A stretch of 34,377 bases of DNA from a virus (lineage: Duplodnaviria > Caudoviricetes). The position numbers were made by a program, and so were the translations under genes. Where the stretch lies: positions 1 to 34,377 of the IMG/VR virus record IMGVR_UViG_3300031802_000399, one strand, 5' to 3'. A model generated the notes under the pieces. The model ran no database searches and was not told the origin of the DNA. It saw nothing but the letters and a program-made list of their open reading frames with translations. Shown piece after piece: positions 521-27,454 of the stretch (the stretch's first letter is position 1; the number at the start of each line of letters is the position of its first letter).

Positions 521-693
521 GAATATGGACTAATTTTGAATTAGGTATAACAATATGTGTTGGCATTGCTATGGGTTTTACTATAGCATTATTATTTTCG
601 GTAGGATGCGGCGAGACTGTTATCGAAGATCATGAAGTACTAATAGGTAATTTTTTAGGGTATGAAGAATTAATGGTAGTTAAGAAACATTGA
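517..693 (+). CDS. Small (58 aa) putative membrane protein, absent from the ORF track
   Basis: Its ATG overlaps the thyA stop (ATGA) and its TGA overlaps the next gene's TTG. Translation MRIWTNFELGITICVGIAMGFTIALLFSVGCGETVIEDHEVLIGNFLGYEELMVVKKH has one hydrophobic segment. Confidence 0.7.
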   Translation: MRIWTNFELGITICVGIAMGFTIALLFSVGCGETVIEDHEVLIGNFLGYEELMVVKKH

Positions 694-1307
694 ACATTAT
701 AACATTTGATCCTAAATTAGATAGTAGTAAAGATCTTGTTAAAAAATTATCTATTAAGTGTAAAGAAATTTATAAAAGCAATGATACTCTTGCAGAAAAC
801 TATAGTACTAAAAAATTTATAATAGCCGATCAGACTATAATCACTTTAGTATTAGATTCAATTGATGAAATAATGATGTTTGCAACATTATACAATACAA
901 AATTTTATAATAATTCTTTTCGTACAGTAAATAGACTGTGGAAATCTCCTACTATTAGAAAAGAAACACCTTGGAAGAATGCTCACAATAGAAAATTTTT
1001 TTATGGGCCCGATATTATAATAGGACATATCAACTTTGCTAAAGAAAAAAATATAAATCAATTGTTTATAAGTATAGAAGGAGGAGCACATAGATACTTA
1101 AAATATATTAGTTCTGTATTAGAAGAAAGAACAGGATTAAAATGGACTGCTCCTAAAGAAATGTATCAAGTTTGTCCTGCTAATAACTTCAGATGTTGGC
1201 AAAATATTACCTATACAAATATATTCAAAGAAGAACCTTTACCATTTAAATGTTCAGGGTTAACATATGAAGAAATGATTAAAACTAAATATAACTATGA
1301 GAACTGA
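690..1307 (+). CDS. Hypothetical protein, possibly GNAT-like acyltransferase fold
   Basis: 205-aa ORF with a TTG start, coupled to both neighbours. The alpha/beta pattern (RTVNRLW, QLFISIE) is loosely GNAT-like, and it ends in a YQVCP…CWQ motif. The function call is weak. Confidence 0.5.
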   Translation: MNIITFDPKLDSSKDLVKKLSIKCKEIYKSNDTLAENYSTKKFIIADQTIITLVLDSIDEIMMFATLYNTKFYNNSFRTVNRLWKSPTIRKETPWKNAHNRKFFYGPDIIIGHINFAKEKNINQLFISIEGGAHRYLKYISSVLEERTGLKWTAPKEMYQVCPANNFRCWQNITYTNIFKEEPLPFKCSGLTYEEMIKTKYNYEN

Positions 1308-2328
1308 AATCGCTGTTAACACTATAAAACCATATAAGTCACCGAGAATAATACCCAAACAATATCCAACATTAAATAATTTGGATACGTTTACTGTTAA
1401 AGATAATCCATACTCGTACATTTATATTGATCTAACATATGCATGTAATATGCATTGCCACTATTGTTATAATCCTGTAAGGACATTACCAGATATTGAT
1501 TTAGATTATTTTAAATATGTATGTGAAAATCTTCCTCGCAGGGTACAACTTCGTTTGTTGGGTGGCGAACCTACTATGTACGAACATTTAGAAGAAGCAT
1601 GTCAAATAGCACATAAAAATGGACACTTTGTTTCTATTATTACAAACGGTATTAAATTTGCAGATAAAGCATATGCACAGTCAATAAAAGATTTAGGAAT
1701 TCCTACATTAGTACCAGGATTAACAATGAACGGTGGTAGAAATAGAGATGACTGGTATGCTGAAATTGATAATGCTAATTGTTCAAAAATAAAAGTCAAA
1801 GCATTAGAAAATATTATAGAAGTTGGATTTAGAAAAGTATATCTTGCCGCTATTGTAATAAGAGATTTTAACGAAGGAATTATTAAAGAGTTATACGATA
1901 TTTCACGTGAACATCCAAAGCAAATAAAAAATATACACTATAGAACTGCTGGAAATGTAGGACGCTGGAATGAAAAATTTGGACAACCTTATACTGCTAC
2001 AGAATTACATGAAGTAGTTGCTAGTATTATTCCTGGAGCGGTAAAGCCTTTAAAATGGATAAGGGATGGTATTAATCCTTCTACAATTAAAGGTGTTCAT
2101 ATTAATAACGACAAACTTACATGTCGAGGATGCTGTCGCGAATATTATTCAGAACCAGGTTTGTTAATTTCAATAATTGAATTTGGTACTGACAATGCTG
2201 GAAAATGTTGGCGGCGTGGAAAACTTAACCCAGATGGAACTGTACAATCTTTCTTTGCTGGAATGCGTGAATTTACTACAGATACATTAGGAGTAGAGTC
2301 CTGTGATGGTGACCATTCCCCTAGTTAA
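1297..2328 (+). CDS. Radical SAM protein with C-terminal Cys motif (paralog A)
   Basis: CxxxCxxC (CNMHCHYC), GGEPT and TNG motifs, with C-terminal CRGCC…KCWRRG. Confidence 0.92.
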   Translation: MRTEIAVNTIKPYKSPRIIPKQYPTLNNLDTFTVKDNPYSYIYIDLTYACNMHCHYCYNPVRTLPDIDLDYFKYVCENLPRRVQLRLLGGEPTMYEHLEEACQIAHKNGHFVSIITNGIKFADKAYAQSIKDLGIPTLVPGLTMNGGRNRDDWYAEIDNANCSKIKVKALENIIEVGFRKVYLAAIVIRDFNEGIIKELYDISREHPKQIKNIHYRTAGNVGRWNEKFGQPYTATELHEVVASIIPGAVKPLKWIRDGINPSTIKGVHINNDKLTCRGCCREYYSEPGLLISIIEFGTDNAGKCWRRGKLNPDGTVQSFFAGMREFTTDTLGVESCDGDHSPS

Positions 2329-3226
2329 AAAAGATTCTGTTGTTAATAGAGCATATAAATTTGAGGAGAATCCGTTCACCGAAGTTTATATTGACGTCAA
2401 TTACAAATGCAATATGGCATGTCCTATGTGCTATTCCGATACACCTCTTGGTGCTCAAGCAACAATACCCGATTTAGATCTAGACTATTATGAAGAATTT
2501 TGTGCTAAACTTCCTCAGCCTATAATCATTCCAATGGTCGGTGGTGAACCTACTATAAGTAAACACATATTAAAAATAATAGAGATAACGCACAAGTATG
2601 GGCATCTTGCTTTTATGTCTACTAACGGTAGACGGTTTGCACAGAGTTTAAACTTTACAAAACAATTTGCAGAAGTAGCAAAGAAAGGCAATACAAGAAT
2701 TCATATTGATATTAGTGGCGGCTATAATGATGATTATAATCAAATTTTATATGGTGAGCCGGGTGTAGAAATGAAAATGAAAGCATTAGAAAACATGCGC
2801 GAAGCAAAACTTGGAAAAGTTTTAATAGCATGTGTACTAATACGTGGATTCAATGAAAATGCAATTCCTGATGTACTTGATATGGCTCAAAAATATAAAA
2901 GAATAGTGCGGCGACTTAAATTTAGAGCACAAGGACATACTGGTAGATTTGTAGATGAGGAACAACCATATACAACACCCGAAATAATAAATTTATTAGA
3001 AGAGCATATAGGATATGAAGCAATTTATAAAGATGTTACATTAAGTGGAAAGATAGTAGATAAATGTTTAGGTAAAAATTGTTGTATGCATTTTAGACCA
3101 TGGCGTGGTTTACAAATTCAAGTACTTGAACATTTTACCAGACAAGGTGTATGTTGGCGCAAGGGATTTTTAACCAATGAAGGCACAATAGTACCTTGGG
3201 GAGAAGACGGCGGACCTTATGTATAA
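2303..3226 (+). CDS. Radical SAM protein with C-terminal Cys motif (paralog B)
   Basis: CNMACPMC, GGEPT and STNG motifs, with C-terminal CLGKNCC…VCWRKG. Colinear with the upstream gene. Confidence 0.92.
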   Translation: MMVTIPLVKKDSVVNRAYKFEENPFTEVYIDVNYKCNMACPMCYSDTPLGAQATIPDLDLDYYEEFCAKLPQPIIIPMVGGEPTISKHILKIIEITHKYGHLAFMSTNGRRFAQSLNFTKQFAEVAKKGNTRIHIDISGGYNDDYNQILYGEPGVEMKMKALENMREAKLGKVLIACVLIRGFNENAIPDVLDMAQKYKRIVRRLKFRAQGHTGRFVDEEQPYTTPEIINLLEEHIGYEAIYKDVTLSGKIVDKCLGKNCCMHFRPWRGLQIQVLEHFTRQGVCWRKGFLTNEGTIVPWGEDGGPYV

Positions 3227-3242
3227 CCTTACGTATGATAAT

Positions 3243-3250
3243 GATAAATA
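3243..3250 (+). promoter_or_regulatory. Putative T4-like late promoter (GATAAATA)
   Basis: 7/8 match to TATAAATA, in an intergenic gap 26 nt before the ATG at 3277 and followed by a GGAGA ribosome-binding site. Confidence 0.5.
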
Positions 3251-3276
3251 TAATATAGTTTAATGGAGAACAACAA

Positions 3277-3585
3277 ATGCCAACAACACAAATAGTGACA
3301 TTCTCAAAAGGAAACACTGTATTTGCAAATGCAGATAATGCAATTCAAAATTTGGAAGTAAATATACCGACTGCAGAACTATCTGCTATTAAAAGTTTAA
3401 TCACTGAAGCAGAAAGTGCAGGTAATTTGACCCAACAAAAAACTTTAAGTGCAGACGGCACAACAACTACAATAACAAGAAGTTGGGGCGATGCCGGCTG
3501 GACAGCATATTCAGCATTAGCAAATCAACAAGCATCTGCAAAAGCAGGAGTAGAAGCAGCTGGTTGGACAGTAACTATTTCTTAA
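3277..3585 (+). CDS. Small Ala/Thr/Ser-rich protein, possibly virion-associated or a modification substrate
   Basis: 102 aa with a strong RBS (GGAGA), no Cys or His, and two AGWT motifs. Its composition resembles the structural proteins more than the neighbouring enzymes. Confidence 0.75.
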   Translation: MPTTQIVTFSKGNTVFANADNAIQNLEVNIPTAELSAIKSLITEAESAGNLTQQKTLSADGTTTTITRSWGDAGWTAYSALANQQASAKAGVEAAGWTVTIS

Positions 3586-3645
3586 TATTCCACTGATATA
3601 AATGTACCATCGATAAATGTGTGTTTTCTAACCACAAGTTGACCA

Positions 3646-4281
3646 ATGAGTTTTGAATTATATAATACAATAACAGCCTATGGTGATCAAATACCATTGG
3701 CCATAAGTATTAAGTATGAAAAAGTATTGGATAAATTACAATCTTTTGATAATGACTGGACACAGTATAATCCTAGAAAGTTACCTAATAATAGACATGG
3801 ATTAAGTATTACAAATCTAGACGGAAAATTGGGTGCTGGTCCGGATTTAGATAGTTTAATTCAGTACAATAAAGAGCATGGTACAACAATAAGAGAATTA
3901 GATTTTATAGTACCCACTCCTGTATATGATATATTTGCTGAATGTTTTGAACCTTTTAAACAATGGTTAGTTAGATGTCATGTACTACAATTACGAGCAG
4001 GCGGATTTTTCCCTCACCACATAGATAATTATGGTTCAGATATCAATTCATTTAGACTATTAATACCATTAGAAAATTGTAATCCAATGAAGGGATATTT
4101 TTTAATAGAAAATAGAATTTTAAATTGGCAACATGGAGTTTTATACTTTATGAATACCTGTAAACAACATGTAGTTTTTAATGCAACGTCAAATAGGAAT
4201 ATGACGTTTGTTGTTTTAAATGTATTATTAAATGAGGAATCTGTTAATTATTTCCTATCACCAGAAGCGATGGGTTTTTAA
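3646..4281 (+). CDS. 2OG-Fe(II) oxygenase, aspartyl/asparaginyl beta-hydroxylase-like
   Basis: HxD (PHHIDN), RLLIPL strand, distal His (NTCKQHVVFN) followed by Arg. Confidence 0.8.
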   Translation: MSFELYNTITAYGDQIPLAISIKYEKVLDKLQSFDNDWTQYNPRKLPNNRHGLSITNLDGKLGAGPDLDSLIQYNKEHGTTIRELDFIVPTPVYDIFAECFEPFKQWLVRCHVLQLRAGGFFPHHIDNYGSDINSFRLLIPLENCNPMKGYFLIENRILNWQHGVLYFMNTCKQHVVFNATSNRNMTFVVLNVLLNEESVNYFLSPEAMGF

Positions 4282-4958
4282 TACCCTAGTACTTCTAATA
4301 AATCACTTGGAAAAGTTTTTTTTATTTTTTGATAATGTATGTCCTTTAAGAATTCTATATACGTATGACAATTCTTAGGATTAGTTCGATGATTACCAAT
4401 ACCATGATTAAAAGATAAACTAGATTCAAATGCTTTTACTAATTTGTCCATATGAATATCATATTCCAAATAGACTTTAATTTTTTTACAAACATCTATC
4501 ATATCTATTCTATTCCATAAATCTTCTAGTTTAATAAACAAAACTGTTGTTCTGTTCTTAACGTTTTCGTACATTTTATTAATATTCTTTCCACTAGAAT
4601 TATCCATTTCAAATAATATTTTTTCGTCTATTGTCTTTAAAGAATTGATATATTCATAATATGAATAAAGTTGATTATATGGTTCATACAACCAAGGTTC
4701 TTGTTTAGCAGTTGCTACCTGATGCCAACGCATTGCAGACATAATTATTTCATAAGGGTGTCTAATAATTACTATACATTTACTTTTTAAAACAGTAATA
4801 TCTTCTACTTCGTTAAAATGATCGACAAACTGAAAATTAAATTTGTCATTATATTTTTTATATTCTTCGAAGATTTTATAAAATAATAGTGTTCCAGTCT
4901 TATGATATGAAGCAATTATGATTTGTGGCGTTTCTTTCCGCATCTTATTTTTTGCCAT
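4278..4958 (-). CDS. Sulfotransferase-family protein
   Basis: 5'-PSB-like loop HKTGT, 3'-PB-like IIRHPYEIIMS, IKLEDL and C-terminal LGY. The start may be the Met at 4943. Confidence 0.8.
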   Translation of the reverse strand: MAKNKMRKETPQIIIASYHKTGTLLFYKIFEEYKKYNDKFNFQFVDHFNEVEDITVLKSKCIVIIRHPYEIIMSAMRWHQVATAKQEPWLYEPYNQLYSYYEYINSLKTIDEKILFEMDNSSGKNINKMYENVKNRTTVLFIKLEDLWNRIDMIDVCKKIKVYLEYDIHMDKLVKAFESSLSFNHGIGNHRTNPKNCHTYIEFLKDIHYQKIKKTFPSDLLEVLGY

Positions 4959-5189: not shown

Positions 5190-5849
5190 TTAAGTATATT
5201 GTTGTCTATCGTTATCTGTATTCAGTGAAAGCCACTCATCAGATGGTTTTAACCATTCTCCTTTTGGGGGCCATCTTGTTGATTTTACTAATTCAAAAAT
5301 GAATCCATGCGTTTTAGATAATTCTATTGCTTCGTCAATTTGATGTTCATTGAATTTAAATACTACAAATTTCCATATAACTCTTATATTCATTTCTCTA
5401 GCAAGTAACATTGCATCCCATGTCTGTTGTGTATTTTGATTTACTCTATATATTGCAGAAGACTCTCCCACTCCATCTAAACTAAATGCCCATTCAACAT
5501 GGGGGCCCGATAATTCATATGCTTGTTTATACCATTTTAATTTTTTACCGGATCCATTTGTGTTAACTCTATAATATTTGTTTTTATCTAAACATGCTAA
5601 AATATCTAAAAAATTTCTATGGTATATAGCATCAGATATTGTACCGCAAAAATTTAACATATCAAAATACTTAACTAGTTTTTTAACATTTGCTATAGAT
5701 ATATCTCCACTTTCATTTATTTTTTTTGTAGCTAATTCTTTTGGACGTGCATGTCTCTCACATAAAAAACATTGAACTATACATTTATTAGATGCATCTA
5801 CATTTACCATTGGTTTTCTAATTGCTGTCAGATAATCTTCGTAATACAT
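5190..5849 (-). CDS. Radical SAM core-only protein
   Basis: CIVQCFLC, CGTISD, NTNGSG, FSLDG and WKFVVFKFNEHQIDEA. The start is probably MYYED at 5849, after a G-rich RBS, rather than 5885. Confidence 0.88.
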   Translation of the reverse strand: MYYEDYLTAIRKPMVNVDASNKCIVQCFLCERHARPKELATKKINESGDISIANVKKLVKYFDMLNFCGTISDAIYHRNFLDILACLDKNKYYRVNTNGSGKKLKWYKQAYELSGPHVEWAFSLDGVGESSAIYRVNQNTQQTWDAMLLAREMNIRVIWKFVVFKFNEHQIDEAIELSKTHGFIFELVKSTRWPPKGEWLKPSDEWLSLNTDNDRQQYT

Positions 5850-6162
5850 CTTCCCCCCATGTTGATAATTTTGAACATTTTTCATTGCATATATCTGGTT
5901 TAATCGAATCAGAATCTTCTAACATTTTAAAAAAGGATCTCCATATATCTGATGTTAATACATCTTCTACGCTATCATTATTTTCTAATTTTAATTCTTC
6001 GTTAAATAAACCGTATTGTGATAATTGTTCTTCATCGAGAGCCTTATCACACCAACAACACGGTAAAAGAAATCCGCGAGAACTATAAGTGATTTCTTTT
6101 ATTTTTGTATTTTTTACTATTTTATTATCTATATTCCAATAAGGAAAACATTTAGGAAACAT
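5818..6162 (-). CDS. Stand-alone SPASM/twitch-like Fe-S domain protein
   Basis: PKC…SSRGFLLPCCWCD…ICNEKCS matches the C-terminal domain of the 7256-8350 protein (IKC…SAEGLCLPCCW…VCAEKCG). Confidence 0.8.
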   Translation of the reverse strand: MFPKCFPYWNIDNKIVKNTKIKEITYSSRGFLLPCCWCDKALDEEQLSQYGLFNEELKLENNDSVEDVLTSDIWRSFFKMLEDSDSIKPDICNEKCSKLSTWGEDVLRRLSDSN

Positions 6163-6165
6163 ATT

Positions 6166-7266
6166 TTATAAATGTCCTCTTAATTTAAAAAACTCCCTAT
6201 CTTCGTCTGTATATTTATAGAGCTTCTTTTTAGATGCCTCTAGTTCATTGGCGTCAGTTTTATTATGTAATGCCATTACTTCGTAATGTAAATTTTTATA
6301 TTGAGATGCAAGATCGATTATTTTTAATATCCTATCTTTATAATCTTTATCGTACATAAATTTAACATTCAAATGTTTACAATTTTCGTCTCGCAATTCT
6401 AGAAATTGTTGTACCTTGTTTATAAACTTATCTGTCATATATGCAAGATGTACACTAAAAGTTATATCGCTCAATGTATTTAATTTATATAATTTTTTAA
6501 CTGTTCCTGTTAAATTAGTCAGAGTTAATATTTTAGTATTAAATCGATCATCATCATGGATCATTTTTATAAAATCATAGTAGTGAGGTATTAGTGTCGG
6601 TTCACCTCCTCCAAAAATATAACTCGCTAGTTTGTTATCCAAATTTAATTCTCGCTCTATAATTATATCGGTTAAAAATTTATAATCATTTTCTAATTTT
6701 TTCATATTATGAATAGGACTAAAATTATCATGTATAGTAGGAGGACAATAGTGACAATCAAAATTACATCGTCTTCCTAAAAACCAATCTATATGAATCA
6801 ATGCATCATCGATAAAACCAGATAATCCAAATGCTAAAATTTTTTCATTATCATAATATGGTATTTTATTTTTTTCTTCATCAGACAATGATTTAAATGT
6901 TGTTTTAAATTTTGTTAAATGATCTAGATCTATACCTTTTGGTATACCTATATCCATTCCACAATAACAATTTTCTTTAGGACAAATATCTGCTTTGTTA
7001 TTAAAAATAACAGGACGTCCATCATGAGTATTATAATCGTTATCAAAGCCAAAACGAGATAAAGAATTACATATGGTATTACTTATAAAACCAGTTATTT
7101 GACTGCCTGATCGAAATGGTCCACTGGTATTAAAATTATATACATGACTAGATGCATCACACACCCAACCTTTAACTTGAGTATGAAATTTTAAATCTAC
7201 TAATCTAATATTTCGTAGACCTTTATCTGTTAATATTATCCATGACCACATTAAATTATTTCTCAA
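6166..7266 (-). CDS. Radical SAM protein with N-terminal Cys-rich auxiliary domain
   Basis: CNFDCHYC lies mid-protein, followed by GGGEPT and TNL. The N-terminal region has GWVC…TIC…ICPKENCYCGMDIGIPK. Confidence 0.88.
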   Translation of the reverse strand: MRNNLMWSWIILTDKGLRNIRLVDLKFHTQVKGWVCDASSHVYNFNTSGPFRSGSQITGFISNTICNSLSRFGFDNDYNTHDGRPVIFNNKADICPKENCYCGMDIGIPKGIDLDHLTKFKTTFKSLSDEEKNKIPYYDNEKILAFGLSGFIDDALIHIDWFLGRRCNFDCHYCPPTIHDNFSPIHNMKKLENDYKFLTDIIIERELNLDNKLASYIFGGGEPTLIPHYYDFIKMIHDDDRFNTKILTLTNLTGTVKKLYKLNTLSDITFSVHLAYMTDKFINKVQQFLELRDENCKHLNVKFMYDKDYKDRILKIIDLASQYKNLHYEVMALHNKTDANELEASKKKLYKYTDEDREFFKLRGHL

Positions 7267-8350
7267 ACATATCTTTAAAGGTATCTAATCCTGTACCACA
7301 TTTTTCTGCACAAACATCTAGTCTACCTTCTTCTAAACTAGAACAAGACCAACTATTTTTAATATCAGTAAAAAAGCCTCTATTATCCATAACATCTTCT
7401 AATTTATTATTAATAACATCTATTCCTTTTTTACCTCCTACTGCATCTATAAAATTCCATATTGGTTCTGATTTAAATTCTCTAAAAGTTCTATACATGC
7501 GAGAAGCAGTCCAACAACAAGGTAAACATAATCCTTCTGCAGATATATACATAGAGTTGTCTTCTAATACTTTACATTTAATTTCAGTTTGATCATAATA
7601 AGTTTTCATATTACCATATTGTTCTGTTAATTGTTCTACTTTATAAAGTGACTTGTTCTGATATTCTTTTGAAGTTGGCATTTTGATAGTTCCTTTAATT
7701 TGTTCTTGCTTTTTTTTAGTTCGAATATTTTGTTCAGTTACACGAGAATGAGTTCTGGCATTCCAAAAACGATCTGATTTTTTTAATCGAAATTCTTCGA
7801 ATCCTAATTTTTTAGAAAATGCTCTTGCTTCTTCAATTTGATGTTCATTATGTTCAAATACTATAAAGTCCCATTTTGCTCTTCCTCCAGCATTTATAAA
7901 TGCTTCCATACTACGTATTACAATATCCCAATTAACATTTTGTCTATATATATGATTTGTATCTTCTAATCCGTCTACACTAAAAGTAACTATACCCTTG
8001 CGTCCAAAAACTTTTGCAAGATCTGCCCACCATTCCTTTTTACGTGCGCCTGCATTGGTATGCATACCGAACCATATATCGGGATTTTGTTCTCTAAAAT
8101 ATTGATATACTTCTACTGTATCTTGTGCTATACAAGGTTCCCCAAAATTACCACACGTAAATAAAGAAGTTAATTGTTTAATAAATTCTGGTTCAAATAT
8201 TTTTTGACAATCTTCTAACGTAAGTTCCGCCATTGTTAAATGAGGATTAATACCTACTCCGTTTAAATTACGAGGACATTGCGGACAAGCAGCTTGACAT
8301 TTTTCTGTTATTTCTAAATGAATTTGCCTTATATCCTTATATCTATACAT
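7256..8350 (-). CDS. Radical SAM/SPASM (twitch) domain protein
   Basis: CQAACPQC, CGNFGEP and FSVDG motifs, with C-terminal C…PCC…CxxxC. Confidence 0.92.
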   Translation of the reverse strand: MYRYKDIRQIHLEITEKCQAACPQCPRNLNGVGINPHLTMAELTLEDCQKIFEPEFIKQLTSLFTCGNFGEPCIAQDTVEVYQYFREQNPDIWFGMHTNAGARKKEWWADLAKVFGRKGIVTFSVDGLEDTNHIYRQNVNWDIVIRSMEAFINAGGRAKWDFIVFEHNEHQIEEARAFSKKLGFEEFRLKKSDRFWNARTHSRVTEQNIRTKKKQEQIKGTIKMPTSKEYQNKSLYKVEQLTEQYGNMKTYYDQTEIKCKVLEDNSMYISAEGLCLPCCWTASRMYRTFREFKSEPIWNFIDAVGGKKGIDVINNKLEDVMDNRGFFTDIKNSWSCSSLEEGRLDVCAEKCGTGLDTFKDMFEK

Positions 8351-9012
8351 TATTTTATACCTATTAACATAAAGCGATTATATTTTTGTAATTCAATAGT
8401 ACCACCGTATAATAAATTATTTATTAAACATTGCTCTCGAAATTCTTTTACATCCTTAACACAATTAATATGTTCTTCAAGTTCAAAATAATTATTACTT
8501 TGTAGTATAACTAGTTTACCTTTTGGTATTAAATCATACCATTTATCAAAATCTATTATATGTTCACATGAAGTATTAATAATTGTATTGGGATTTTCAA
8601 ATAATTCTCGTGCTTCGCCATCTGCTCTATATGTAGTATACCTATGTCCTGCATAATTTATATTATGAATATCTTCTGTTGTTGCTTTAAACTTCCACCT
8701 ATCTAACACATAATCTTTATTTAATGCTTCTGCTATATCGGCACATGAAGGATCTATATCAAAGGATCTAATTTTGTTAAACTGTAATTGACTTACGAAC
8801 ATTATGTTTGCTAAACTAGCATACCAACCGCCGCATAAAAAAATAGTTCCTAAATTTAAATTTAATGCTTCTAGTTCTTCTATTAACCAAACTTTACTTT
8901 CAAGTTGTCCTACACTATAAAGATCTCTCCATTTTAAATCAGGATTTTTAATCATAATGTCTGCAAGACGAAAATAATTACGTAATATATTTTCAGTTGT
9001 AATTTCTTTCAT
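8350..9012 (-). CDS. Class I SAM-dependent methyltransferase-like protein
   Basis: Motif I-like FLCGGWYA, acidic SFDID, IINTSCEH and a terminal RFMLIG strand. Confidence 0.7.
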   Translation of the reverse strand: MKEITTENILRNYFRLADIMIKNPDLKWRDLYSVGQLESKVWLIEELEALNLNLGTIFLCGGWYASLANIMFVSQLQFNKIRSFDIDPSCADIAEALNKDYVLDRWKFKATTEDIHNINYAGHRYTTYRADGEARELFENPNTIINTSCEHIIDFDKWYDLIPKGKLVILQSNNYFELEEHINCVKDVKEFREQCLINNLLYGGTIELQKYNRFMLIGIK

Positions 9013-9727
9013 ATTGTTCTTTTAACCATGCATAGTCATTTATCTTGTTTAATGCTTTATCATTGGTACGATTTTTTGCACCATATTCACGTCCTGCGTT
9101 AGCACCGGCTATAGCATATTCCCCAAATTCTTTATCAGCTCCTACTGTACACCAAATATCTAATCTTTTTTCCGTATCTTCATGTTGCTTTCTTCTTAAA
9201 AACTTTTTACCACTAGGTAATGTTACAATACTACTTACCAATTTGGAACATTCACGAAACGCACTTTTCCATGTACTATAAGGATCTGTATTGAATGCAG
9301 TTATATTACTAACTTGTAACATGGGTTTAAAATGTTTAACTACAGACGTTGTAAAATCTAGATTCCAACCTTTTGCTTCTCGTAATCCTTTTGCAGGAAA
9401 TAATTTAGCACCACCATAACCATATACTAAATCATTAATGGGATTTATTGCTCGCCACGTATGCACACAATCTGTTGCTAAAATACTTTCATATGCTTCG
9501 TCTAATTCAGTTGGCTGATAATCAAAATTAAAATCATTTAATAAAATAGCATCAGCATCTATTACATAAAACATTTTTGTTTTACTTAATTCAGCTGCAC
9601 GTTTATGTGCATTAAAAATACCTTTAATACCATCTACTCTTTTAGCAAGAGGTGCTTTCTCTTTTAATACTTTGAAGTTGTCATCAGCATACTGTTCGTG
9701 ATAACTTATAAAAAATACGTCAAACAT
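8993..9727 (-). CDS. Putative GT-A glycosyltransferase (paralog of 22233-23231)
   Basis: FDVFFISY, DxD (IDAD), NDLVYGYGGAKL, AFRECSKL and WCTVGAD. Confidence 0.7.
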   Translation of the reverse strand: MFDVFFISYHEQYADDNFKVLKEKAPLAKRVDGIKGIFNAHKRAAELSKTKMFYVIDADAILLNDFNFDYQPTELDEAYESILATDCVHTWRAINPINDLVYGYGGAKLFPAKGLREAKGWNLDFTTSVVKHFKPMLQVSNITAFNTDPYSTWKSAFRECSKLVSSIVTLPSGKKFLRRKQHEDTEKRLDIWCTVGADKEFGEYAIAGANAGREYGAKNRTNDKALNKINDYAWLKEQYERNYN

Positions 9728-18171: not shown

Positions 18172-19489
18172 ATTTTTTCCAAATTAAATCAAGCTCTGGA
18201 AATATAGTAGGAGTATGTTCTTCACGGATGCCATCTAATTTAATAGTTTGATCTACCATTCTATATAATTTTTCTTCCGGCATTTGTTCACTCATCATGA
18301 AATTTATTGTATTTGCTACAGTGTCTTTAAATTTACCAGGAAACATTGATGTTCTATTTTCTACCCATTCTACATGTTTCTCTAATTTTTCTTTTGCTTG
18401 TTCTTTGAATTCAAGTGGTAATGCTTTTATATTATAATAATCTGGATTTACAAGTATATTAAAAAACATAAGTTCAGGCTTTACGTAACCTTTTTCAACC
18501 CAATCTTTATGTAAATCAGTTATTGTTAAAATATTTAATATTTGTACAGTAGGTGATACTTCAAAATGTACATTGGGTGCTTCTTTAGCTAAACGTTCTA
18601 CATTTCTTTCAATTGTTTTCCACACTGTATCCTTACGAATAAGTTCTGCTCTAGCATCACTTGCATCTATACTGGCTGCAACATGGACATTTCTAAATTT
18701 TTTCCACATGCTAATTACATCCATATCTTTATAATGCATTTGCATAAAATTTGTATTATATCTAATGTAAACATTATATAATTCTAATTCATCTAATCGT
18801 TTTAAAATTCTATAATGCTCTTCCATAATAAGAGGTTCCCCTCCTGCAAAATAAAATTCTTTAACATAAGGAATATATTCATCTAGTCTATCTAGTAGAG
18901 CAGTACTATCTTCAACACCATGAATGATTGCTATATCTTGATTTGGAGGGAAAGCACCATAATGATAATCCTTATATTTTTCTCGCATTGCTTTTGCATC
19001 TGCAAACCATCGCGAACTAGAAAAATGCCCACACATCCTACAACGCATATTACATATATTTGAAAAACGAATATCCCAATATATTGGTTTAGAATCTAAA
19101 CTGGTACCGTCTTCTTCTGTATTAAGAATATACTCTTTTGCATTATGATGATGTTTTCTAAGTTCAGCATATCTGAGACTCCAATTTCCAGTTTGTTCTT
19201 TTTCATAACAAACTTTACATCTTGCATCAGGTTTATCATTTAACATTTTTACTCTGAACTGGCGCATTTCCTTACCATTCCAAATTTCATCAAACGAATT
19301 TTTATTAATATTACCAAGCGGAGTTTCACCCCATTCGCTTATGCAACAAGGTAATACATCTCCTATTGCCGCTACATGTAAATGAACCCATGGTAAAGGA
19401 CAATAACAACTTGTTTCATTTTTAAGTTGTTCTATTGTTGCACCTTCTTCTATTTTTTGTTGTATAATAGATTTTTTAATATCTGACAT
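18161..19489 (-). CDS. Radical SAM protein with N-terminal twitch/SPASM domain
   Basis: CPLPW…GDVLPCC…LGNI…CKVC, then CNMRCRMC, FAGGEPL and YNTN. Confidence 0.92.
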   Translation of the reverse strand: MSDIKKSIIQQKIEEGATIEQLKNETSCYCPLPWVHLHVAAIGDVLPCCISEWGETPLGNINKNSFDEIWNGKEMRQFRVKMLNDKPDARCKVCYEKEQTGNWSLRYAELRKHHHNAKEYILNTEEDGTSLDSKPIYWDIRFSNICNMRCRMCGHFSSSRWFADAKAMREKYKDYHYGAFPPNQDIAIIHGVEDSTALLDRLDEYIPYVKEFYFAGGEPLIMEEHYRILKRLDELELYNVYIRYNTNFMQMHYKDMDVISMWKKFRNVHVAASIDASDARAELIRKDTVWKTIERNVERLAKEAPNVHFEVSPTVQILNILTITDLHKDWVEKGYVKPELMFFNILVNPDYYNIKALPLEFKEQAKEKLEKHVEWVENRTSMFPGKFKDTVANTINFMMSEQMPEEKLYRMVDQTIKLDGIREEHTPTIFPELDLIWKKYGY

Positions 19490-21077
19490 TATTAAATTCC
19501 GTTTTACATTGGTTATAAAAATCTTCTAGTTCTGGAAATGTTTTAACAAAATTAGTATTTCGTCTCTTATCCATTTCTGATATATATTTAAAACAATTAA
19601 TTTTCATGCTTTGTATTTTAGTAAAGTTATCATTAACTATATCATCATGATATTTGTCATTTACAAAAACAGCTGCATCACATACTCTTCCCATTTTTTC
19701 TGCTTCATAATCATAAAAATTTTTATTATTTCTACTTTGGATTCCATCTGATAAAGAAATATTTTCAAGCATAAACTCATAACAGCTCCATAGTTTAGGC
19801 ATTGTCCAAACTTTATCAGGCACACCAACAGATAAGAAAGGAGGAAATTCTAGACATGCTATATCTATATGTAATTGACAGGGTTTCTCTGCTATAACAA
19901 ATTTAGTAGCATGTTGCCAACCAGACATTGGATCATATGATGTTCGTCGCGATAACTCATCTTTTCTAGCAAAGTCTATATTGTTAGTACGAAAAAAGTC
20001 TTTATATATATCATATCTATTTTCATTTCGTGTATTATATTTTTGTTTAATTAATAATATTTCTTTTAGGAACTTATCAAATTTGGGAATACTCATCCAA
20101 GTAAATGTTGTCATTATACTAACATAAACAGTAGGATGATTTTCGATCAAGTATATTAACCTTTCCCAAAACATATTAAATTGTAGTCCTGTACGAATAT
20201 ATTCTGCTTGTTCGCCCCATGTATCCATACTTGCAAATATAGTAAATTTTTTAACACAAGGATTATCTTCATTGTGTTTAATAAAATCTATAAGTTTTTT
20301 CCATGCTTCTTCCGGTGCGTTTAAATTTGTATTAATAGAAAAGTCTAGATCTTTAATAGGATTACATTTAAGTTCTTCAAATAGTTTAAAAGTATCACGG
20401 CACATTAAAGGTTCACCACCTGTTACTCTTAAATATTTGAGCGTCTTTCTAAGTTCGAACCACCACTTCCAAAATGCTTCTACATAAGGATTATGTTCAC
20501 GATGAGGAATAGGTAATTGATCTGTTTTCTTTAACCAATCTATATCATGATAACTCCATTTAGCAAAAGAATAATCATCCCATAAATGTATCTTATTGTG
20601 TTCTTCTTGTTCTTGTACCCACTTGGAACTGAAATGCGGACCACAATATAAACATTTAAAGTTACATGCATTCGAAAAACTAACTTCTACATAACTAGGA
20701 TTAAATTTTTCTCCCACCCCTGCATCTTTAATTATATCAAATCTATTTGCAAATAGATTAGCACTTTTTAACATTCTATCACTAACAGCTTCTTTATTAG
20801 ATTCTACTTTCCAACAATAATTACACCCTGCAGGTAAACCACCATGTAACATTTCGTCACGTTGTTTTTGTTTTTCTAATGTATTATGAATTGCTCTGTG
20901 ATCTTTTTTTAGTTCCTCTAGAGGTATTTTATGCGGCTCCGGATGATGACAACTATGTGTCATTCCGTTATGAAGATGCAATGTGACTTGATCCCATTTT
21001 GCAAGACAGAATCCGGGGCCTACTTCATTGAGTCGCTCCCTCATTTTATTTGCGTTTGATATTTGTTGATTAGCCAT
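19476..21077 (-). CDS. Radical SAM protein with N-terminal twitch-like domain
   Basis: FCLAKW…SCHH…CNYCW, then CNFKCLYC, TGGEPL and INTNL. Confidence 0.92.
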   Translation of the reverse strand: MANQQISNANKMRERLNEVGPGFCLAKWDQVTLHLHNGMTHSCHHPEPHKIPLEELKKDHRAIHNTLEKQKQRDEMLHGGLPAGCNYCWKVESNKEAVSDRMLKSANLFANRFDIIKDAGVGEKFNPSYVEVSFSNACNFKCLYCGPHFSSKWVQEQEEHNKIHLWDDYSFAKWSYHDIDWLKKTDQLPIPHREHNPYVEAFWKWWFELRKTLKYLRVTGGEPLMCRDTFKLFEELKCNPIKDLDFSINTNLNAPEEAWKKLIDFIKHNEDNPCVKKFTIFASMDTWGEQAEYIRTGLQFNMFWERLIYLIENHPTVYVSIMTTFTWMSIPKFDKFLKEILLIKQKYNTRNENRYDIYKDFFRTNNIDFARKDELSRRTSYDPMSGWQHATKFVIAEKPCQLHIDIACLEFPPFLSVGVPDKVWTMPKLWSCYEFMLENISLSDGIQSRNNKNFYDYEAEKMGRVCDAAVFVNDKYHDDIVNDNFTKIQSMKINCFKYISEMDKRRNTNFVKTFPELEDFYNQCKTEFNNVRY

Positions 21078-22224
21078 GATAAGGTGTTAAATTTCCCAAT
21101 GATACTTTAGGATGATTAAATAATTCATGCTTTAATGTATTTAAAAACTCTTTGTGTTCGGGATGAGTATTTTTCCATATACATTGTTGTTCATATTCTT
21201 CGGGCGACCATGTTCCCCAATCTGTAACTAAACTAAAATTAATAGTAGCTACATTATTATATCTATTTGTAATTAATTCGATATATGTAGGCATTTCTTT
21301 ATAGTTTGTTACCTGTACAACAAAATCATAATGTATATCAAATTTATTATAATCATTGTGCTTATCATTTAAAAAGTCACAATTTTCTAATAATAAATCC
21401 CAATTACCGCCTAAACGAGTTTTGTTTTCGTATGTATCTTTAGTACCTGCATCAAACGATATTCTACATGCTCTTAATTGATTTTGAATTTTGTGTAATT
21501 TATTCCACATTTTAGGAGTAAACATAACTCCGTTTGTTTGAAGATTAATTTTTAAATTAGGAAATTTAGTACCATCTATATTATATAACATATCCCTATA
21601 TATTTTACTAGCAAACGGATCCCCACTTCCGGTAACATATATATTAAAGTTTCTATCGGTTGGTTCTATCAAAAATGCTTCAACTACTTTATCATTAACA
21701 AACTTTCGTTGTTCATACATTGCGCCTTCAGTTAACAATATTTTTCCTACTCTGCAACTAGGGCATTGAAGATTACAACTTTCATCGTTGGCAAAATTAA
21801 TACGTGTGGGTAATTCACTTGCAATAACAGATAAATTTTTATCCTGATCTGCTAAAAAAGGTAATTTATCTTCTGCTATTTCTGGACAAAAATGATGTTG
21901 ACAATATTGCCATGTACCATCAAATACTTGTTGACGGATTGCTTGTGCTTTTGGACCATTCCACATTTCTTTAATGCTTTGTTCGCGAAGATTTCCTATA
22001 AAATAAGGCAACCAACTAGGGCAACAAAGCCAACATTTCCCCCACATGTCTACTTCTAACCAGTCCCACATTTTAGAACAATAGCGACCTTCTAGATTTT
22101 TTTTAGAATCTCTGGCACCTTCTGTATCTTTAATCCATACATCACCAAATATAGGATCAATTTGGTGACCTTTCGCTTGCTGTGTAAAGGGTCGTCTAAC
22201 TGCGGCGTTTATTTTTTTATCCAT
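21070..22224 (-). CDS. Radical SAM protein with N-terminal SPASM-like domain
   Basis: YCSKMW…LCCPSW…IGNL…YCQHHFCP, then CNLQCPSC, GSGDPF and QTNG. Confidence 0.92.
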   Translation of the reverse strand: MDKKINAAVRRPFTQQAKGHQIDPIFGDVWIKDTEGARDSKKNLEGRYCSKMWDWLEVDMWGKCWLCCPSWLPYFIGNLREQSIKEMWNGPKAQAIRQQVFDGTWQYCQHHFCPEIAEDKLPFLADQDKNLSVIASELPTRINFANDESCNLQCPSCRVGKILLTEGAMYEQRKFVNDKVVEAFLIEPTDRNFNIYVTGSGDPFASKIYRDMLYNIDGTKFPNLKINLQTNGVMFTPKMWNKLHKIQNQLRACRISFDAGTKDTYENKTRLGGNWDLLLENCDFLNDKHNDYNKFDIHYDFVVQVTNYKEMPTYIELITNRYNNVATINFSLVTDWGTWSPEEYEQQCIWKNTHPEHKEFLNTLKHELFNHPKVSLGNLTPYHG

Positions 22225-22232: not shown

Positions 22233-23231
22233 TTAACCTTCAAGATCTATTGGATCACCTATATACTGTTCTACATCACTTTCTCTTACCATTGCACCCA
22301 ACCTACTAGGATTAACATATGTTGCTTTAAAAAATCTACTACCTACTTCGTCTAAATCTGCAATTTCTAAATCTATTTCGCGACGCAATTCTAATCCAAG
22401 TTTTTTTGTTTCGGATAATAAAAGTTGCCTATTCCATCGGTAACCTGTTTTAGCACAGATATCATCACCGCCTTCAAATTTATTATTGATATTATCTTTC
22501 CAAAATTGTGTAATCCATTCGAAGTCACGTACATTAGTCCATTCCCAAGTTTCACGCGACACGTTAACCATATGACAACCTAACCGTGCTCCATATACTG
22601 CCCATAATCCATTTAATACATCTGCACCAACTGTACACCATATTAATAATCTATTATAATTTCCTCTATGGATGTGTTTTAATCGTTCTCTACTTACAGG
22701 TGCCCCATCTATTAAACTCATTTTAACACCTTCTCTAAAACCTGCCCTAAATGATTGATAAGGGGAAGCATTATTCATAACTTGAGAGTATATATTATTC
22801 ATTTGAATATAATGTATGTCCCAACAAAAATCAACTTGACTACTAGGACTATCTTCAGGAGCAGCTTCATGTGTTCGCATTTGTTCTACTACTTTTATCG
22901 GCCATGATTTAATTCCACCATTGCCATATACTAAACTGTTTACTTCATTACGTCCTGCCCATGATATTACATCTAGTTCTGATATTTTGTCAGTATCTAT
23001 TTCTATACTAAAAAAGTCTGGATCTACTATATTGTCTGCATCTATACCTACAAAACGTTCTGTTTCTGATAAGGCTGCCGCGGCTTTATGTGCCGCATCG
23101 CTCCCCCATACACCATGTGAACGTTTTGCCCACGGGCATTTATCTAATAAGTCTGCATAGTTTTCTTCTGCGTTTGGTTCATCATATGAAATATATACTA
23201 CATCAAATTCAGTTATTGGTATTTTCGACAT
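22233..23231 (-). CDS. Putative GT-A glycosyltransferase (paralog of 8993-9727)
   Basis: FDVVYISY, IDAD, NSLVYGNGGIKS, GFREGVKM and WCTVGAD. Confidence 0.7.
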   Translation of the reverse strand: MSKIPITEFDVVYISYDEPNAEENYADLLDKCPWAKRSHGVWGSDAAHKAAAALSETERFVGIDADNIVDPDFFSIEIDTDKISELDVISWAGRNEVNSLVYGNGGIKSWPIKVVEQMRTHEAAPEDSPSSQVDFCWDIHYIQMNNIYSQVMNNASPYQSFRAGFREGVKMSLIDGAPVSRERLKHIHRGNYNRLLIWCTVGADVLNGLWAVYGARLGCHMVNVSRETWEWTNVRDFEWITQFWKDNINNKFEGGDDICAKTGYRWNRQLLLSETKKLGLELRREIDLEIADLDEVGSRFFKATYVNPSRLGAMVRESDVEQYIGDPIDLEG

Positions 23232-24231
23232 TATTGTCCTCTCCTCTAAATGTTATCTTAATTCTACTGCCGTCATATAAAAGCATTTTATTTTTTAAAC
23301 TTATAAATCCTTGTAAGTCAAAAATTCTATGTTTCTTTGGAATTAAATCCTTCCAATCAAAACTTAATGCTCCATCATAATAATCCGGATCTTCTTCATC
23401 ACATATATAAAATTTAAGTTGTTTTTCATATTGTGCTACTTGTTGTGTGTTTACTATATGACTAATAACTTCTAAATTATTATCTTCATGTTGAATTAAA
23501 TCTATATGAGAAGTTTCGTCTTGTGTAAATTCTTTAACCATGTTAAGTCTTCCTAATTTATTCTTGTAATAATCTGTTTCTACAAATTTATCTTTAATAA
23601 TTAAACTATAATCTCGAAAATGTCGTTTGATACAAATATCCATGTTGGACGGGTCAAATTTTGAAAAGCTAGGTATAAGCAATGACCCTTCATCAAATAT
23701 ATCTGCTAAAGGAAATACAAATCTTGCTTCTAATTTGTCAGGATCTTTTTTGTCTACCAGATAGATTATAAATTGCTCTTCAAATGCTAATTTAAATTGA
23801 TTACGCCATAATGTATTATTATAGTTTCCTAATACAACTGCATTAAATTGTATTTCGAGTAATTGACTCTCTTTATAAAAAATAAAGGTAATGCCTTTGG
23901 AATCATTGTTTCGTGGTATTTTATATAAATTAGCATCACGTTTAACAAAATTAATTAAGTTAGTTTTTTTAACTAGTTTTAATTCATTTGCTTCATAATC
24001 TTTATAACCTATTGCATATTTGGTATCAGATAATATTCCTTTAATAATATCCTTTGCTAATCCTGTATCATCGATTATATAAGGATCTGTATTATAGTCT
24101 TGTAATTGTGTTGTAACACAAGAGATGCTTCCATTAAACTCATCATAATATACTAAAAAATCTTTCTCTTTAGTTTTTTTAGGTACGAGTTTAATTACTC
24201 CTTGTGAATTTATCGAGTTCGTCATATTCAA
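23209..24231 (-). CDS. Hypothetical protein
   Basis: 340-aa ORF overlapping both neighbours in the operon. It may carry an internal duplication (IYLVDKKDPD / FYICDEEDPD). Confidence 0.75.
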   Translation of the reverse strand: MNMTNSINSQGVIKLVPKKTKEKDFLVYYDEFNGSISCVTTQLQDYNTDPYIIDDTGLAKDIIKGILSDTKYAIGYKDYEANELKLVKKTNLINFVKRDANLYKIPRNNDSKGITFIFYKESQLLEIQFNAVVLGNYNNTLWRNQFKLAFEEQFIIYLVDKKDPDKLEARFVFPLADIFDEGSLLIPSFSKFDPSNMDICIKRHFRDYSLIIKDKFVETDYYKNKLGRLNMVKEFTQDETSHIDLIQHEDNNLEVISHIVNTQQVAQYEKQLKFYICDEEDPDYYDGALSFDWKDLIPKKHRIFDLQGFISLKNKMLLYDGSRIKITFRGEDNNVENTNN

Positions 24232-25063
24232 ATGCTTTATTACCGTAATGAATTATACCGGTAACATTATAATTTTCTATTTTTAAATTACCTTCTTTAA
24301 TCCAATAATTTAAATCTTCGTGCCATAATTCTCCATTGGTTAGAGACAGGTCTGTGTATGTTAATATATTTGTATCTACTATTTCATCTGCTAAATCTAA
24401 ATTATCTATAGTTAGACTAAAAAGAAAATCCTTATCAAATTCTGCTGGTCGTTCATGTTCAAATTGATTATACGAATCTTCGTAATTGCGTAAATAAACT
24501 TCTAGCAAATTAAAAAATGGTTCTGTATCTTCTTCGGAAGAATCTAGTTCTATTCTTTCTCTACCTTCATAACGATATTCTTTTTTCTTATTAAAGTCCT
24601 TGTTGAAATACCAAATTGATGTTTCGAATTGTGGCAGACTATTTTTTTCTTGTATTTTTTGTTGTACTGAATGGCATACATTTCTGAAATCTTTTACAGT
24701 ATGTGGAAAAAGCATGTCGTGTCTTCTTGCAGCTTCAAAAAGACCATCCAATTTTGCTAATACTATTGTATCGGCATCTAGTACTAATGTATTTTCATAA
24801 GGTGTTGCATAATATAATTGATAAAGATTCTTCAATGTATTGTCATCTAGATGTCCTGCATCATCAAAAGGAAATTCAATTATATTATCATACAGTTCCT
24901 GTTGTCCTGATGGTACAAATAATTTATTTCTCGTAAATAAACTAATTGATATATCAGGATTATGTTGTTTAATTGTTTTTGCACAAATAGAAGCACTGTA
25001 TAAGTAATCACGTTTACTTGAATTACAATTATGTGCAAAAATTAAAATACCGGTATTAGCCAT
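24191..25063 (-). CDS. GT-A (GT8-like) glycosyltransferase
   Basis: GILIFA, TPYENTLVLDADT (DxD) and IIHY. Confidence 0.75.
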   Translation of the reverse strand: MANTGILIFAHNCNSSKRDYLYSASICAKTIKQHNPDISISLFTRNKLFVPSGQQELYDNIIEFPFDDAGHLDDNTLKNLYQLYYATPYENTLVLDADTIVLAKLDGLFEAARRHDMLFPHTVKDFRNVCHSVQQKIQEKNSLPQFETSIWYFNKDFNKKKEYRYEGRERIELDSSEEDTEPFFNLLEVYLRNYEDSYNQFEHERPAEFDKDFLFSLTIDNLDLADEIVDTNILTYTDLSLTNGELWHEDLNYWIKEGNLKIENYNVTGIIHYGNKAFEYDELDKFTRSN

Positions 25064-25973
25064 ATGTTTTTATAAATTTATCAGCATGTCGCTCTATTGC
25101 TTTTTTATTCATCAAATGTACATTTTCATTTGTACACTGTACTAATAAATCTCTCCAGTTTTCTTGTCTATTGTTAGATAAAAATAATAATTTATTTTTA
25201 CCTTGTACTTCAACCAAATCATCTTTTTGATCCATATAACGCATAAACTTACCTGGTAGAGTTTGTACTAAACTATCATTGTCCATCATTCCATTTAAAA
25301 TATGAATTGCTATTGATACTGCATAGTCTGTTCTATATAATGTACCAGGAAACCCATATCTAAATTTATAAAAGTCATAATTGTCTCTTATATGCCCCCA
25401 TAGATCGAAAAACAATTTACAAAAATCACTTTTATCAAAATACACAACAGTACTCCACCACATATCTATACCATGTGCTTGTAATCGTACTTCATCTGGA
25501 TGTGGTACTTTAAACTCTAAATTTAAAGCATGATCATACATACTTAACGGTGCATCTGTTTCAAATACTGCATCTAAATTAGAATTAGATATAAAGTAAT
25601 CTATATCTATTAATAATGTTCTATCAAATGGGGAATATTCAAATATCTTATGTTTATTATGATTTTTAAAAGGAGCACTAAATGTATACCACGGTGAATC
25701 ATGATGTACTCTTGTATTTTTAATATTTTCATCGATATTATCTATGATAATATAATTAAAGGCAGCATTTACTAACTTTTTATCTATTCCATGTTCTATA
25801 TATCCAGCAGTTCCTTGATCACATATTAACGCAACTTTATTATTTTTCATATTTGCTTTAACATGAAGAGCGGCAATAACTGCTAGTTTAGCATAATCTA
25901 TTTCCTTATTGTTGTATGCAAACATACATACACCATTTTTTATAGGTTTTTCTATTTTTCTTTTTGATCCCAT
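25056..25973 (-). CDS. GT-A (GT8-like) glycosyltransferase
   Basis: GVCMFAYN, SPFDRTLLIDID (DxD), RTDYAVSIA and VHLMNK. Related to the adjacent gene. Confidence 0.75.
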   Translation of the reverse strand: MGSKRKIEKPIKNGVCMFAYNNKEIDYAKLAVIAALHVKANMKNNKVALICDQGTAGYIEHGIDKKLVNAAFNYIIIDNIDENIKNTRVHHDSPWYTFSAPFKNHNKHKIFEYSPFDRTLLIDIDYFISNSNLDAVFETDAPLSMYDHALNLEFKVPHPDEVRLQAHGIDMWWSTVVYFDKSDFCKLFFDLWGHIRDNYDFYKFRYGFPGTLYRTDYAVSIAIHILNGMMDNDSLVQTLPGKFMRYMDQKDDLVEVQGKNKLLFLSNNRQENWRDLLVQCTNENVHLMNKKAIERHADKFIKTYG

Positions 25974-26314
25974 TCTATAATGGCCTTAATGTTTCTACTC
26001 TTTTTTAGGCGTTGATGTTCTGTATATAATTCATTACTTGCTTGATGATATGCTTCTAATAAATTATCTCTAAATTCTTTTAAATTTTCTATGTTAACAG
26101 GATTATTTTTACTATCACTAATAATTGCTGTTTCATTTTTTGTTTCTATTAATACCTGAACAAATGCAATTAAATCTCGTTCGGCATAAAATATCCCACC
26201 ATTAACTATTAGTTGTAATTGACTATTATATCTTTGTTTTACATTTTCTCTTTGAATATGTAATGTCTGCCGATAGTTTGCAAATTCCAGAGCCCGACGC
26301 AAGCGGTCTTCCAC
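25952..26314 (-). CDS. Conserved hypothetical protein, first gene of the glycosyltransferase/radical SAM operon
   Basis: GTG start with a GGAGGT RBS (26326-26321). A 120-aa, largely helical protein. Confidence 0.8.
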   Translation of the reverse strand: MEDRLRRALEFANYRQTLHIQRENVKQRYNSQLQLIVNGGIFYAERDLIAFVQVLIETKNETAIISDSKNNPVNIENLKEFRDNLLEAYHQASNELYTEHQRLKKSRNIKAIIEWDQKEK

Positions 26315-27453: not shown

Positions 27454-27454
27454 G

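Follow-up and report, generated by a model that had tools for sequence, protein, structure and literature searches.

A fixed glycosyltransferase-like gene core behind a predicted virion gene of jumbo phages, and its possible part in fibre glycosylation

What does a phage modify with eight radical S-adenosylmethionine (SAM) enzymes and a set of glycosyltransferase (GT)-like genes placed beside its tail genes? The question is raised by the IMG/VR virus record IMGVR_UViG_3300031802_000399, the whole of which (34 kb; 34,377 nucleotides) we call the window, and which carries such an island at positions 690..26314. A first-pass annotation had proposed that the phage builds and tailors a glycan or other modification on its own virion proteins. 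We find that the locus is two things, a fixed GT core and a variable cargo, and that its novelty lies in the fixed association of this core with one predicted virion gene, fib1, which holds a candidate tyrosine acceptor, and not in the radical SAM count. The earlier interpretation is partly supported: of the targets considered, the virion is favoured, with DNA and the host surface as candidates that also appear viable from the sequence.

The window was found in seawater and vent metagenomes, where contigs from four runs (one of them perhaps the source itself) span 30 of 30 bins of positions 16500-29500; two RNA runs gave window shares of only 0.06-0.07. Its structural genes resemble those of GAP32, CBB, Atu_ph07 and Phosso-type jumbo myophages, no tRNA gene was found in the window, and we assign it to an uncultured marine giant (jumbo) phage of the GAP32/RsoM2USA kind. 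Related loci were compared in two sets. The first, selected by the transferase-like gene GTd, holds the best 80 of 343 viral matches and two loci from one genome bin (82 in all). The second holds 80 of 530 loci selected through the structural gene g28572, which avoids choice by enzyme; g28572 (28572..29198, minus strand; 208 aa) belongs to the structural module, marks GAP32/Atu_ph07-like jumbo myophages and occurs in 88 phage records. Among 50,697 phage records, GTd matched RsoM2USA only. The sole matches in prokaryote genomes (L083, L084) come from a single metagenome bin that bears the label Gammaproteobacteria; as genes on these two contigs follow the phage order, they are probably binned phage DNA.

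A fixed core and a variable cargo

The core lies on the minus strand in the order fib1 (26386..27453), g25952 (25952..26314; 120 aa; it opens the GT operon and overlaps GTd), GTd (25056..25973), GTc (24191..25063), g23209 (23209..24231) and GTb (22233..23231). In the GTd-selected set, GTc, g23209 and GTb follow GTd in all 69 loci with enough sequence, and upstream of GTd we observed fib1 in 68/68 loci and g25952 in 66/68. The structure-selected set contains fib1 in 42 of its 80 loci; g25952 or GTd is the next gene in 35 of the 37 that have one, and of 30 GTd genes 28 have fib1 before them, as do the other two once a wider profile is used. The cultured phage RsoM2USA has, behind its tail genes, the order fib, g25952, GTd, GTc, a short gene, GTb, rS7 (a radical SAM gene), GTa and a methyltransferase. 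Core and fib1 occur together across marine, freshwater and soil phages, and the same slot in GAP32, Phosso and Atu_ph07 is without both (24-kb regions compared).

Other genes were seen in this slot. In four loci without fib1 (L093, L094, L097, L114) the fibre genes end in a pair of unrelated genes, behind which lie other small proteins that we take, from a motif and with no Pfam match, to be GT-like; some have a methyltransferase or an rS5-like gene, an independent recruitment to the same slot. Phosso (L085:14614-22357) and Atu_ph07 (L087:15424-23073) carry there a cupin oxygenase-like gene and four radical SAM genes, together with a protein of ~300 aa ending in three CHxS repeats; this cassette may resemble those for peptides that ribosomes make and that are modified after translation (RiPPs), with a virion protein as possible target. 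Apart from these slot contents, Vibrio phage K566 (L004:14980-24447) combines four rS6/rS7-like genes with two GT8 genes and a GT4-like one, and encodes a protein of 225 aa that is 10% Tyr, 13% Ser and 11% Gly.

The genes that follow the core vary. Radical SAM genes adjoining GTb number 0, 1, 2, 3, 4, 5 and 6 in 7, 8, 9, 12, 5, 13 and 1 of 55 loci, respectively (one zero-count locus has a more distant radical SAM gene at its edge), and at least one lies within ~7 kb in 48/55. The commonest gene directly after GTb is of the rS7 type and is retained in RsoM2USA. Over whole genomes, we counted 10-20 radical SAM matches in each of four partial relatives and one in RsoM2USA; in the relatives these genes are spread over several clusters with up to 150 kb between them. 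Given the strict synteny of fib1 with the GT genes and the varying radical SAM content, we take fib1 to be the fixed partner of the transferases, and the radical SAM genes to be cargo. The island had been described as running on from the structural genes, with a linkage that synteny should reveal. The first statement holds for 16972-26314, the region as a whole being four blocks on alternating strands of which only this one continues the structural genes; the linkage is very strict for the GT core and loose for the radical SAM genes. Eight such genes are an ordinary number in this clade, and the belief that no characterised phage has so many does not stand beside our relatives or beside the Campylobacter phages CP220 and CPt10, which hold 11 and 12, five of them in an interchangeable module (PMC2853527). 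In the available part of that paper these clusters are read as metabolic genes, and neither a GT core nor structural linkage is reported.

The predicted fold of GTd (pLDDT 92) is GT-A, in the GT8/GT24 neighbourhood, with UGGT, GlyE, glycogenin and LgtC as best matches. Glycogenin aligns at Z 15.3 (root mean square deviation 3.9, 216 residues aligned, identity ~13%), tied with LgtC (14.7), the Skp1 galactosyltransferase (14.5) and UGGT (14.3). The DxD motif is kept in 71/71 sequences. GTc is a divergent paralogue whose profile matches only glycogenins in the PDB (E 2.7e-7); its DxD positions are Asp in 45/67 and 47/67, so that about a third have lost the motif, which suggests a possible partner subunit. 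Neither protein matches Pfam GT8 (PF01501). The Atlas cluster that holds GTb (perhaps GTb's own) bears the automatic name GT2-like, with a score of 0.99, and GTa, its paralogue (34% identical), is coupled to a class I methyltransferase-like gene at 8350..9727 (minus strand), a pair that adjoins the core in RsoM2USA and in 13/55 loci. GTb keeps the DxD motif in 66/66, GTa likewise throughout, and neither has a PDB or Pfam match. The methyltransferase is assigned weakly, from motifs and one relative at E 0.0018. g23209, a fast-evolving gene always found between GTc and GTb, gave no usable match in family and profile searches, and g25952 none in family searches. We considered g25952 as a known tail-fibre chaperone and found no match to DUF4376, which we take to be such a family; that it acts as a chaperone or adaptor is a guess. 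Four of the roughly five GT-like genes first counted are thus supported (GTd by fold, GTc by profile, GTb by its Atlas cluster and GTa by its likeness to GTb). The fifth, encoding 399 aa at 16972..18171 (minus strand), has no match in any family or profile search; we presume it GT-B/GT10-like from a motif, and one relative is fused to an NDP (nucleoside diphosphate)-sugar epimerase.

The operon is preceded by a sigma-70-type promoter-like site (26347..26375, minus strand). The corresponding interval of relatives contains TAAATA in 54/64 (background 3.4%) and the sigma-70 pattern in 49/64 (background 1.3%); the window operon has the sigma-70 pattern only, that of RsoM2USA TAAATA only, and 32 sister loci have the former in 18/32 and the latter in 8/32. 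TAAATA is presumably a late promoter core, as in T4-like phages, and this late reading draws also on its presence before g28572 in 49/49 relatives. Since both elements are frequent, the timing of the operon appears to be mixed.

The tyrosine loop of fib1 and a proposed virion glycosylation

Upstream of fib1 lie a large virion structural (baseplate-region) protein gene (29251..34377, minus strand, its 5' end beyond the window; phrog_10938 virion structural protein, E 7e-145), g28572 and fib2 (27455..28528, minus strand), a fibre-like virion protein gene (phrog_14394 virion structural protein, E 1e-11). The first is a homologue of RsoM2USA ORF361, which was detected in virions according to the part of the paper available (PMC8504454). 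We predict that fib1 is itself a virion protein from this gene order and from RsoM2USA ORF355, a fib1 homologue fused to a fib2-type N-terminus; among the ten bands identified from RsoM2USA virions, the available text does not include ORF347-355 (PMC8504454). The fib1 model (pLDDT 87) has a helical N-domain and a beta-sandwich, with no match in the PDB (Foldseek E above 0.001; VIA best Z 6.8). The protein forms 2059 clusters at 50% identity; tblastn against cultured phages found no match, and a profile search finds two homologues in RsoM2USA.

Between two strands of fib1 lies a Tyr/Gly repeat loop (residues 256-277; 26623..26688, minus strand) with six tyrosines at a period of ~3; it is the only part of the model with pLDDT <50 and reads as disordered. 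Over 62 distinct fib1 rows the loop has at least four Tyr in 60 and at least three YG pairs in 51, with a maximum of 24 Tyr, and when all open reading frames (ORFs) of the fetched loci were scanned for Tyr plus small residues only fib1 was positive (56/78 and one fragment). In a sister clade of 52 proteins the loop is short and holds a single Tyr in 52/52, counted from the alignment column and not by a loose regular expression; it is the sole invariant column besides the start. We set aside an apparent link of period-3 loops to the GTa/methyltransferase pair (11/16 versus 0/25) because methyltransferase homologues lie elsewhere in 4/5 other genomes and the labels follow the tree.

From these observations, we hypothesize that the GT-like operon glycosylates fib1, probably on tyrosines of its exposed loop, and that the radical SAM and sugar cargo edits the sugars; as read from the sequence, we hold the case for and against this to be evenly balanced. 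A fuller version is more doubtful and is offered tentatively: that a large clade of jumbo phages from water and soil carries a Tyr-O-linked glycan brush on a dedicated virion protein, glycogenin-like enzymes priming one ancestral loop tyrosine that this lineage amplified to (YG)n/(YGG)n with up to 24 sites, and a swappable NF033640-type cassette diversifying the sugars. This version would make the island a phage serotype locus and give a first handle on NF033640 chemistry. Gene order, promoter-like site, GT-A fold, DxD motifs and loop are seen directly, and from them we infer what the donor, the acceptor, the linkage and the purpose are. GTd, assisted by GTc, would prime the tyrosine hydroxyl on fib1 in the manner of glycogenin, and GTb and GTa would lengthen the chain. 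The NDP-sugar block would supply uronic, amino and C-methyl sugars. Enzymes of the BtrN type apply radical SAM chemistry to sugars, and the N-terminal-twitch radical SAM enzymes may, like BtrN, oxidise, epimerise or decarboxylate them. The expanded loop would form a multi-site brush shielding the fibre or tuning attachment, and each phage would owe a glycan type of its own to its exchangeable set of radical SAM, methyl-, sulfo- and NDP-sugar genes. Many enzymes of the GT8/GT24 folds nearest to GTd act on proteins or glycoproteins, which would, as far as the model goes, favour a protein target. We count in its favour, too, the presumed late core TAAATA before the operon of most relatives, the surface-polysaccharide setting of bacterial rS6 relatives and the sugar-type genes among the relatives' cargo.

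Several observations weigh against this hypothesis. Glycogenin is tied in fold score with LgtC, a lipopolysaccharide (LPS) enzyme, so the fold does not reveal a tyrosine acceptor. The syntenic fib1 homologue of RsoM2USA has neither the loop nor the tip Tyr and the GT operon is retained; the loop Tyr is kept only in a paralogue 67 kb away. The sister clade has the core without the long loop, and in a quick GTd tree the long- and short-loop loci are separated by one branch (support 97), so that the link between loop and core is one event and not repeated co-evolution. The invariant Tyr may be structural or may bind a receptor sugar. The sigma-70-only window operon and the sister-locus counts fit early expression as well, judging from promoter-like sequence, and in RsoM2USA a second gene of the ThyA family, taken up below, encodes Asp at the specificity site.

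Similar proposals exist for other phages. Mycobacteriophage-encoded glycosyltransferases have been proposed to decorate virion proteins (Freeman et al. in 2023); there the C-termini of capsid and tail tube reportedly bear the glycans, and the system is not known to include radical SAM or NDP-sugar cargo or a Tyr-repeat acceptor. Glycogenin and GT8 enzymes share the GT-A fold and DxD motif with GTd and are the best match of GTd and GTc; they differ in that identity is only ~13%, that no Pfam GT8 match was found, and that glycogenin primes its own tyrosine where a separate acceptor is proposed here. Moraphages, which are jumbo phages of aquatic habitats, share four core orthogroups of glycosyltransferases and have virion glycosylation as one named option, and the available text does not mention radical SAM (PMC12619734); their placement uses MCP (major capsid protein), TerL and PolB, markers that the window is without. 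In the literature searched, which lay outside subscription journals, we found no paper on a fixed fib1-GT module or on a phage tyrosine acceptor. Islands of GT and radical SAM genes are often found next to phage fibre genes, and the usual explanation is that they modify host LPS or DNA; here, a fixed core with a named candidate acceptor and residues makes the question directly testable. Should the hypothesis hold, virion glycosylation would reach into a very large phage clade (343 viral GTd matches), and tyrosine-linked glycans and dozens of candidate sugar-editing radical SAM enzymes would be added to it.

Other possible targets

The operon might instead remodel a host surface polysaccharide, for serotype conversion or superinfection exclusion, which we consider unlikely. 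LgtC among the GT8-like folds, bacterial rS6 relatives in LPS/capsule clusters and the frequent sigma-70 pattern would fit it, and such a role is argued, in the part of the text available, for the pelagimyophage/cyanomyophage host recognition cluster (PMC7029224). Like our locus, that cluster is a hypervariable island among structural genes in which tail fibres stand together with GT8 genes, sugar enzymes and radical SAM cassettes; as described there it is non-syntenic and read as modifying the host O-chain (PMC7029224), whereas here, in GAP32/RsoM2USA-like jumbo phages, a six-gene core is fixed behind one structural gene with a candidate acceptor loop. Tevenvirinae-like host recognition clusters lie between vrlC and the neck gene gp14, both outside the window, and a cyanomyovirus island with 13 glycosyltransferases is described in the accessible part of another report (PMC12801897). 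Against a host-surface role, fib1 and the core remain together in marine, freshwater and soil phages, which should infect different hosts; the window genes gave no match to a flippase, a polymerase or a membrane GT; and the late TAAATA core is found in 54/64.

Less likely again is that the transferases glycosylate hydroxymethylated DNA bases, the radical SAM enzymes hypermodifying the sugars against restriction. This draws on ORF10 of RsoM2USA (L174:1369-2205), a divergent ThyA-family gene with Asp where canonical copies have Asn, a substitution that we take to mark deoxycytidine monophosphate (dCMP) hydroxymethylases; it lies near dCMP deaminase-like and kinase-like genes and is, from its sequence, a candidate cytosine-modifying enzyme (dCMP hydroxymethylase). 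A thyA gene also borders the island in the window, but this copy has the canonical Asn. Furthermore, ORF10 is >200 kb from the GT operon of RsoM2USA, none of four partial relatives has a ThyA-family match, an ORF10 query found one 26% match in one of five other genomes (the nine partial genomes being 48-73% complete), and the operon is tied to structural and not to replication genes. A TET search gave no signal in any genome, controls included.

We find it more improbable still that the core glycosylates a virion component and most radical SAM genes are unrelated to it, making a free small molecule or being passing island cargo. The alternating-strand blocks, the many scattered radical SAM clusters of the relatives and the scarcity of relatives of rS1/rS2, the oxygenase, the sulfotransferase and small genes in the fetched loci would suit this; the preference for an rS7-type gene after GTb, kept in RsoM2USA, and the presence of a radical SAM gene near the core in most loci speak against it. 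Least likely of all is a direct, RiPP-style modification of the Tyr/Gly loop by the radical SAM enzymes with the GTs secondary, to which several XYG triplets in the window loop and the four radical SAM genes beside the CHxS-repeat protein of Phosso and Atu_ph07 lend something, but the count of loop tyrosines does not follow that of nearby radical SAM genes (rho 0.22, p 0.18, n 40), some long-loop loci have no nearby radical SAM gene, no splicease or peptide-maturase model scores above cut-off, and the Phosso cassette has a different radical SAM type and no GT core. RiPP-type chemistry includes Tyr cross-links, and spliceases excise tyramine at XYG; a splicease reading of the loop was lowered in view of the failed maturase models and the missing loop-count correlation.

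Radical SAM genes, sugar block and remaining window genes

The eight radical SAM cores first noticed are confirmed: eight ORFs (1297-2328, 2303-3226, 5190-5885, 6166-7266, 7256-8350, 18161-19489, 19476-21077 and 21070-22224) have CxxxCxxC, with 0.08 such motifs expected by chance, and all eight match Pfam Radical_SAM (PF04055; E 2e-15 to 0.0085, the weakest being rS3 at 0.0085), five above the curated cut-off. A ninth motif was discarded, as it sits in a 52-aa shadow frame opposite fib1. rS6 (18161..19489, minus strand) and rS7 (19476..21077, minus strand; 34% identical to RsoM2USA ORF349) are members of the N-terminal-twitch family NF033640, with 382 and 273 bits against a whole-protein cut-off of 170; rS8, rS3, rS4 and rS5 score below it, and for rS1 and rS2 no match was listed. 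rS8 (21070..22224, minus strand) has an N-terminal twitch-like domain (PF13186, at 49-109) before PF04055. NF033640 is not known to have an assigned reaction, and a search of titles and abstracts found no paper on the family.

Bacterial relatives in NF033640, a family that we compare with BtrN-type enzymes, lie in polysaccharide clusters; rS6 has seven plasmid matches, and the three neighbourhoods inspected were all surface-polysaccharide (LPS/capsule) clusters. All RiPP maturase models (spliceases, ranthipeptide and similar) were far under cut-off for the window proteins. Sugar tailoring fits these genes better than peptide maturation. A bacterial parallel to the cargo was seen on a Brachyspira plasmid (L171), where six radical SAM genes and a SPASM gene lie amid rfb and rhamnan synthesis genes. 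Recent duplication of the window's radical SAM genes was ruled out by pairwise identities of 22-32% (rS1 and rS2, 32%).

rS5, rS4, a free twitch/SPASM-like gene (5818-6162) and rS3, the split counterpart of rS5, occupy 5190..8350 (minus strand), assigned from Pfam and homology. The free gene, already noted as SPASM-like, has no match in family searches and holds the CxxCC and Cx3C pattern of the rS5 C-terminus, so that we read it as the split-off half of rS3; in this split enzyme (5190-6162) the Fe-S half lies upstream of the core, reversing the domain order of rS5.

The NDP-sugar operon of the first-pass annotation is borne out by Pfam. The block (10772..16991, plus strand) encodes an epimerase, a thioredoxin-like protein, UDP-glucose dehydrogenase, an unassigned protein, an RmlC/FdtA-like cupin, a short DegT-type aminotransferase, a C-methyltransferase and a second unassigned protein. 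A fusion of a cytidylyltransferase-like domain with a mannose-6-phosphate-isomerase-type cupin (PF01467, PF01050) lies at 9937..10689 (minus strand). The assignments of this cytidylyltransferase-cupin fusion and of the block's C-methyltransferase, epimerase, UDP-glucose dehydrogenase, DegT-type aminotransferase and cupin are solid. As to the methyl- and sulfotransferases and the 2-oxoglutarate (2OG) oxygenase once listed together, only the C-methyltransferase is firm; the others come from motifs and weak matches, with the sulfotransferase-like gene (4278..4958, minus strand) at E 0.011 to PF00685 on the phosphate loop and the 2OG oxygenase-like gene at E 0.15. The latter closes a group downstream of thyA (690..4281, plus strand) that also comprises an unassigned gene, rS1, rS2 and a 102-aa gene. 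The cargo of relatives, in 78 representatives, has no Pfam match in more than half; the matched ones are largely methyltransferases, NDP-sugar, acyl-, carbamoyl- and sulfate-activating enzymes and oxygenases, and include RmlC, TylF, FkbM, carbamoyltransferase and APS kinase.

Family searches gave no assignment for 690-1307, 3277-3585, 9720-9953 or the pair 12943-13797 and 16038-16991. The members of this pair are paralogues (E 1e-11) with conserved His in predicted helices and, from these residues, possibly bind metal. The short divergent intergenic region 10690-10771 has sigma-70-like and TAAATA sites on both strands. The 102-aa Ala/Thr/Ser-rich protein of 3277-3585, whose gene separates rS2 from the oxygenase gene and has TAAATA upstream, is possibly a small virion protein or a substrate.

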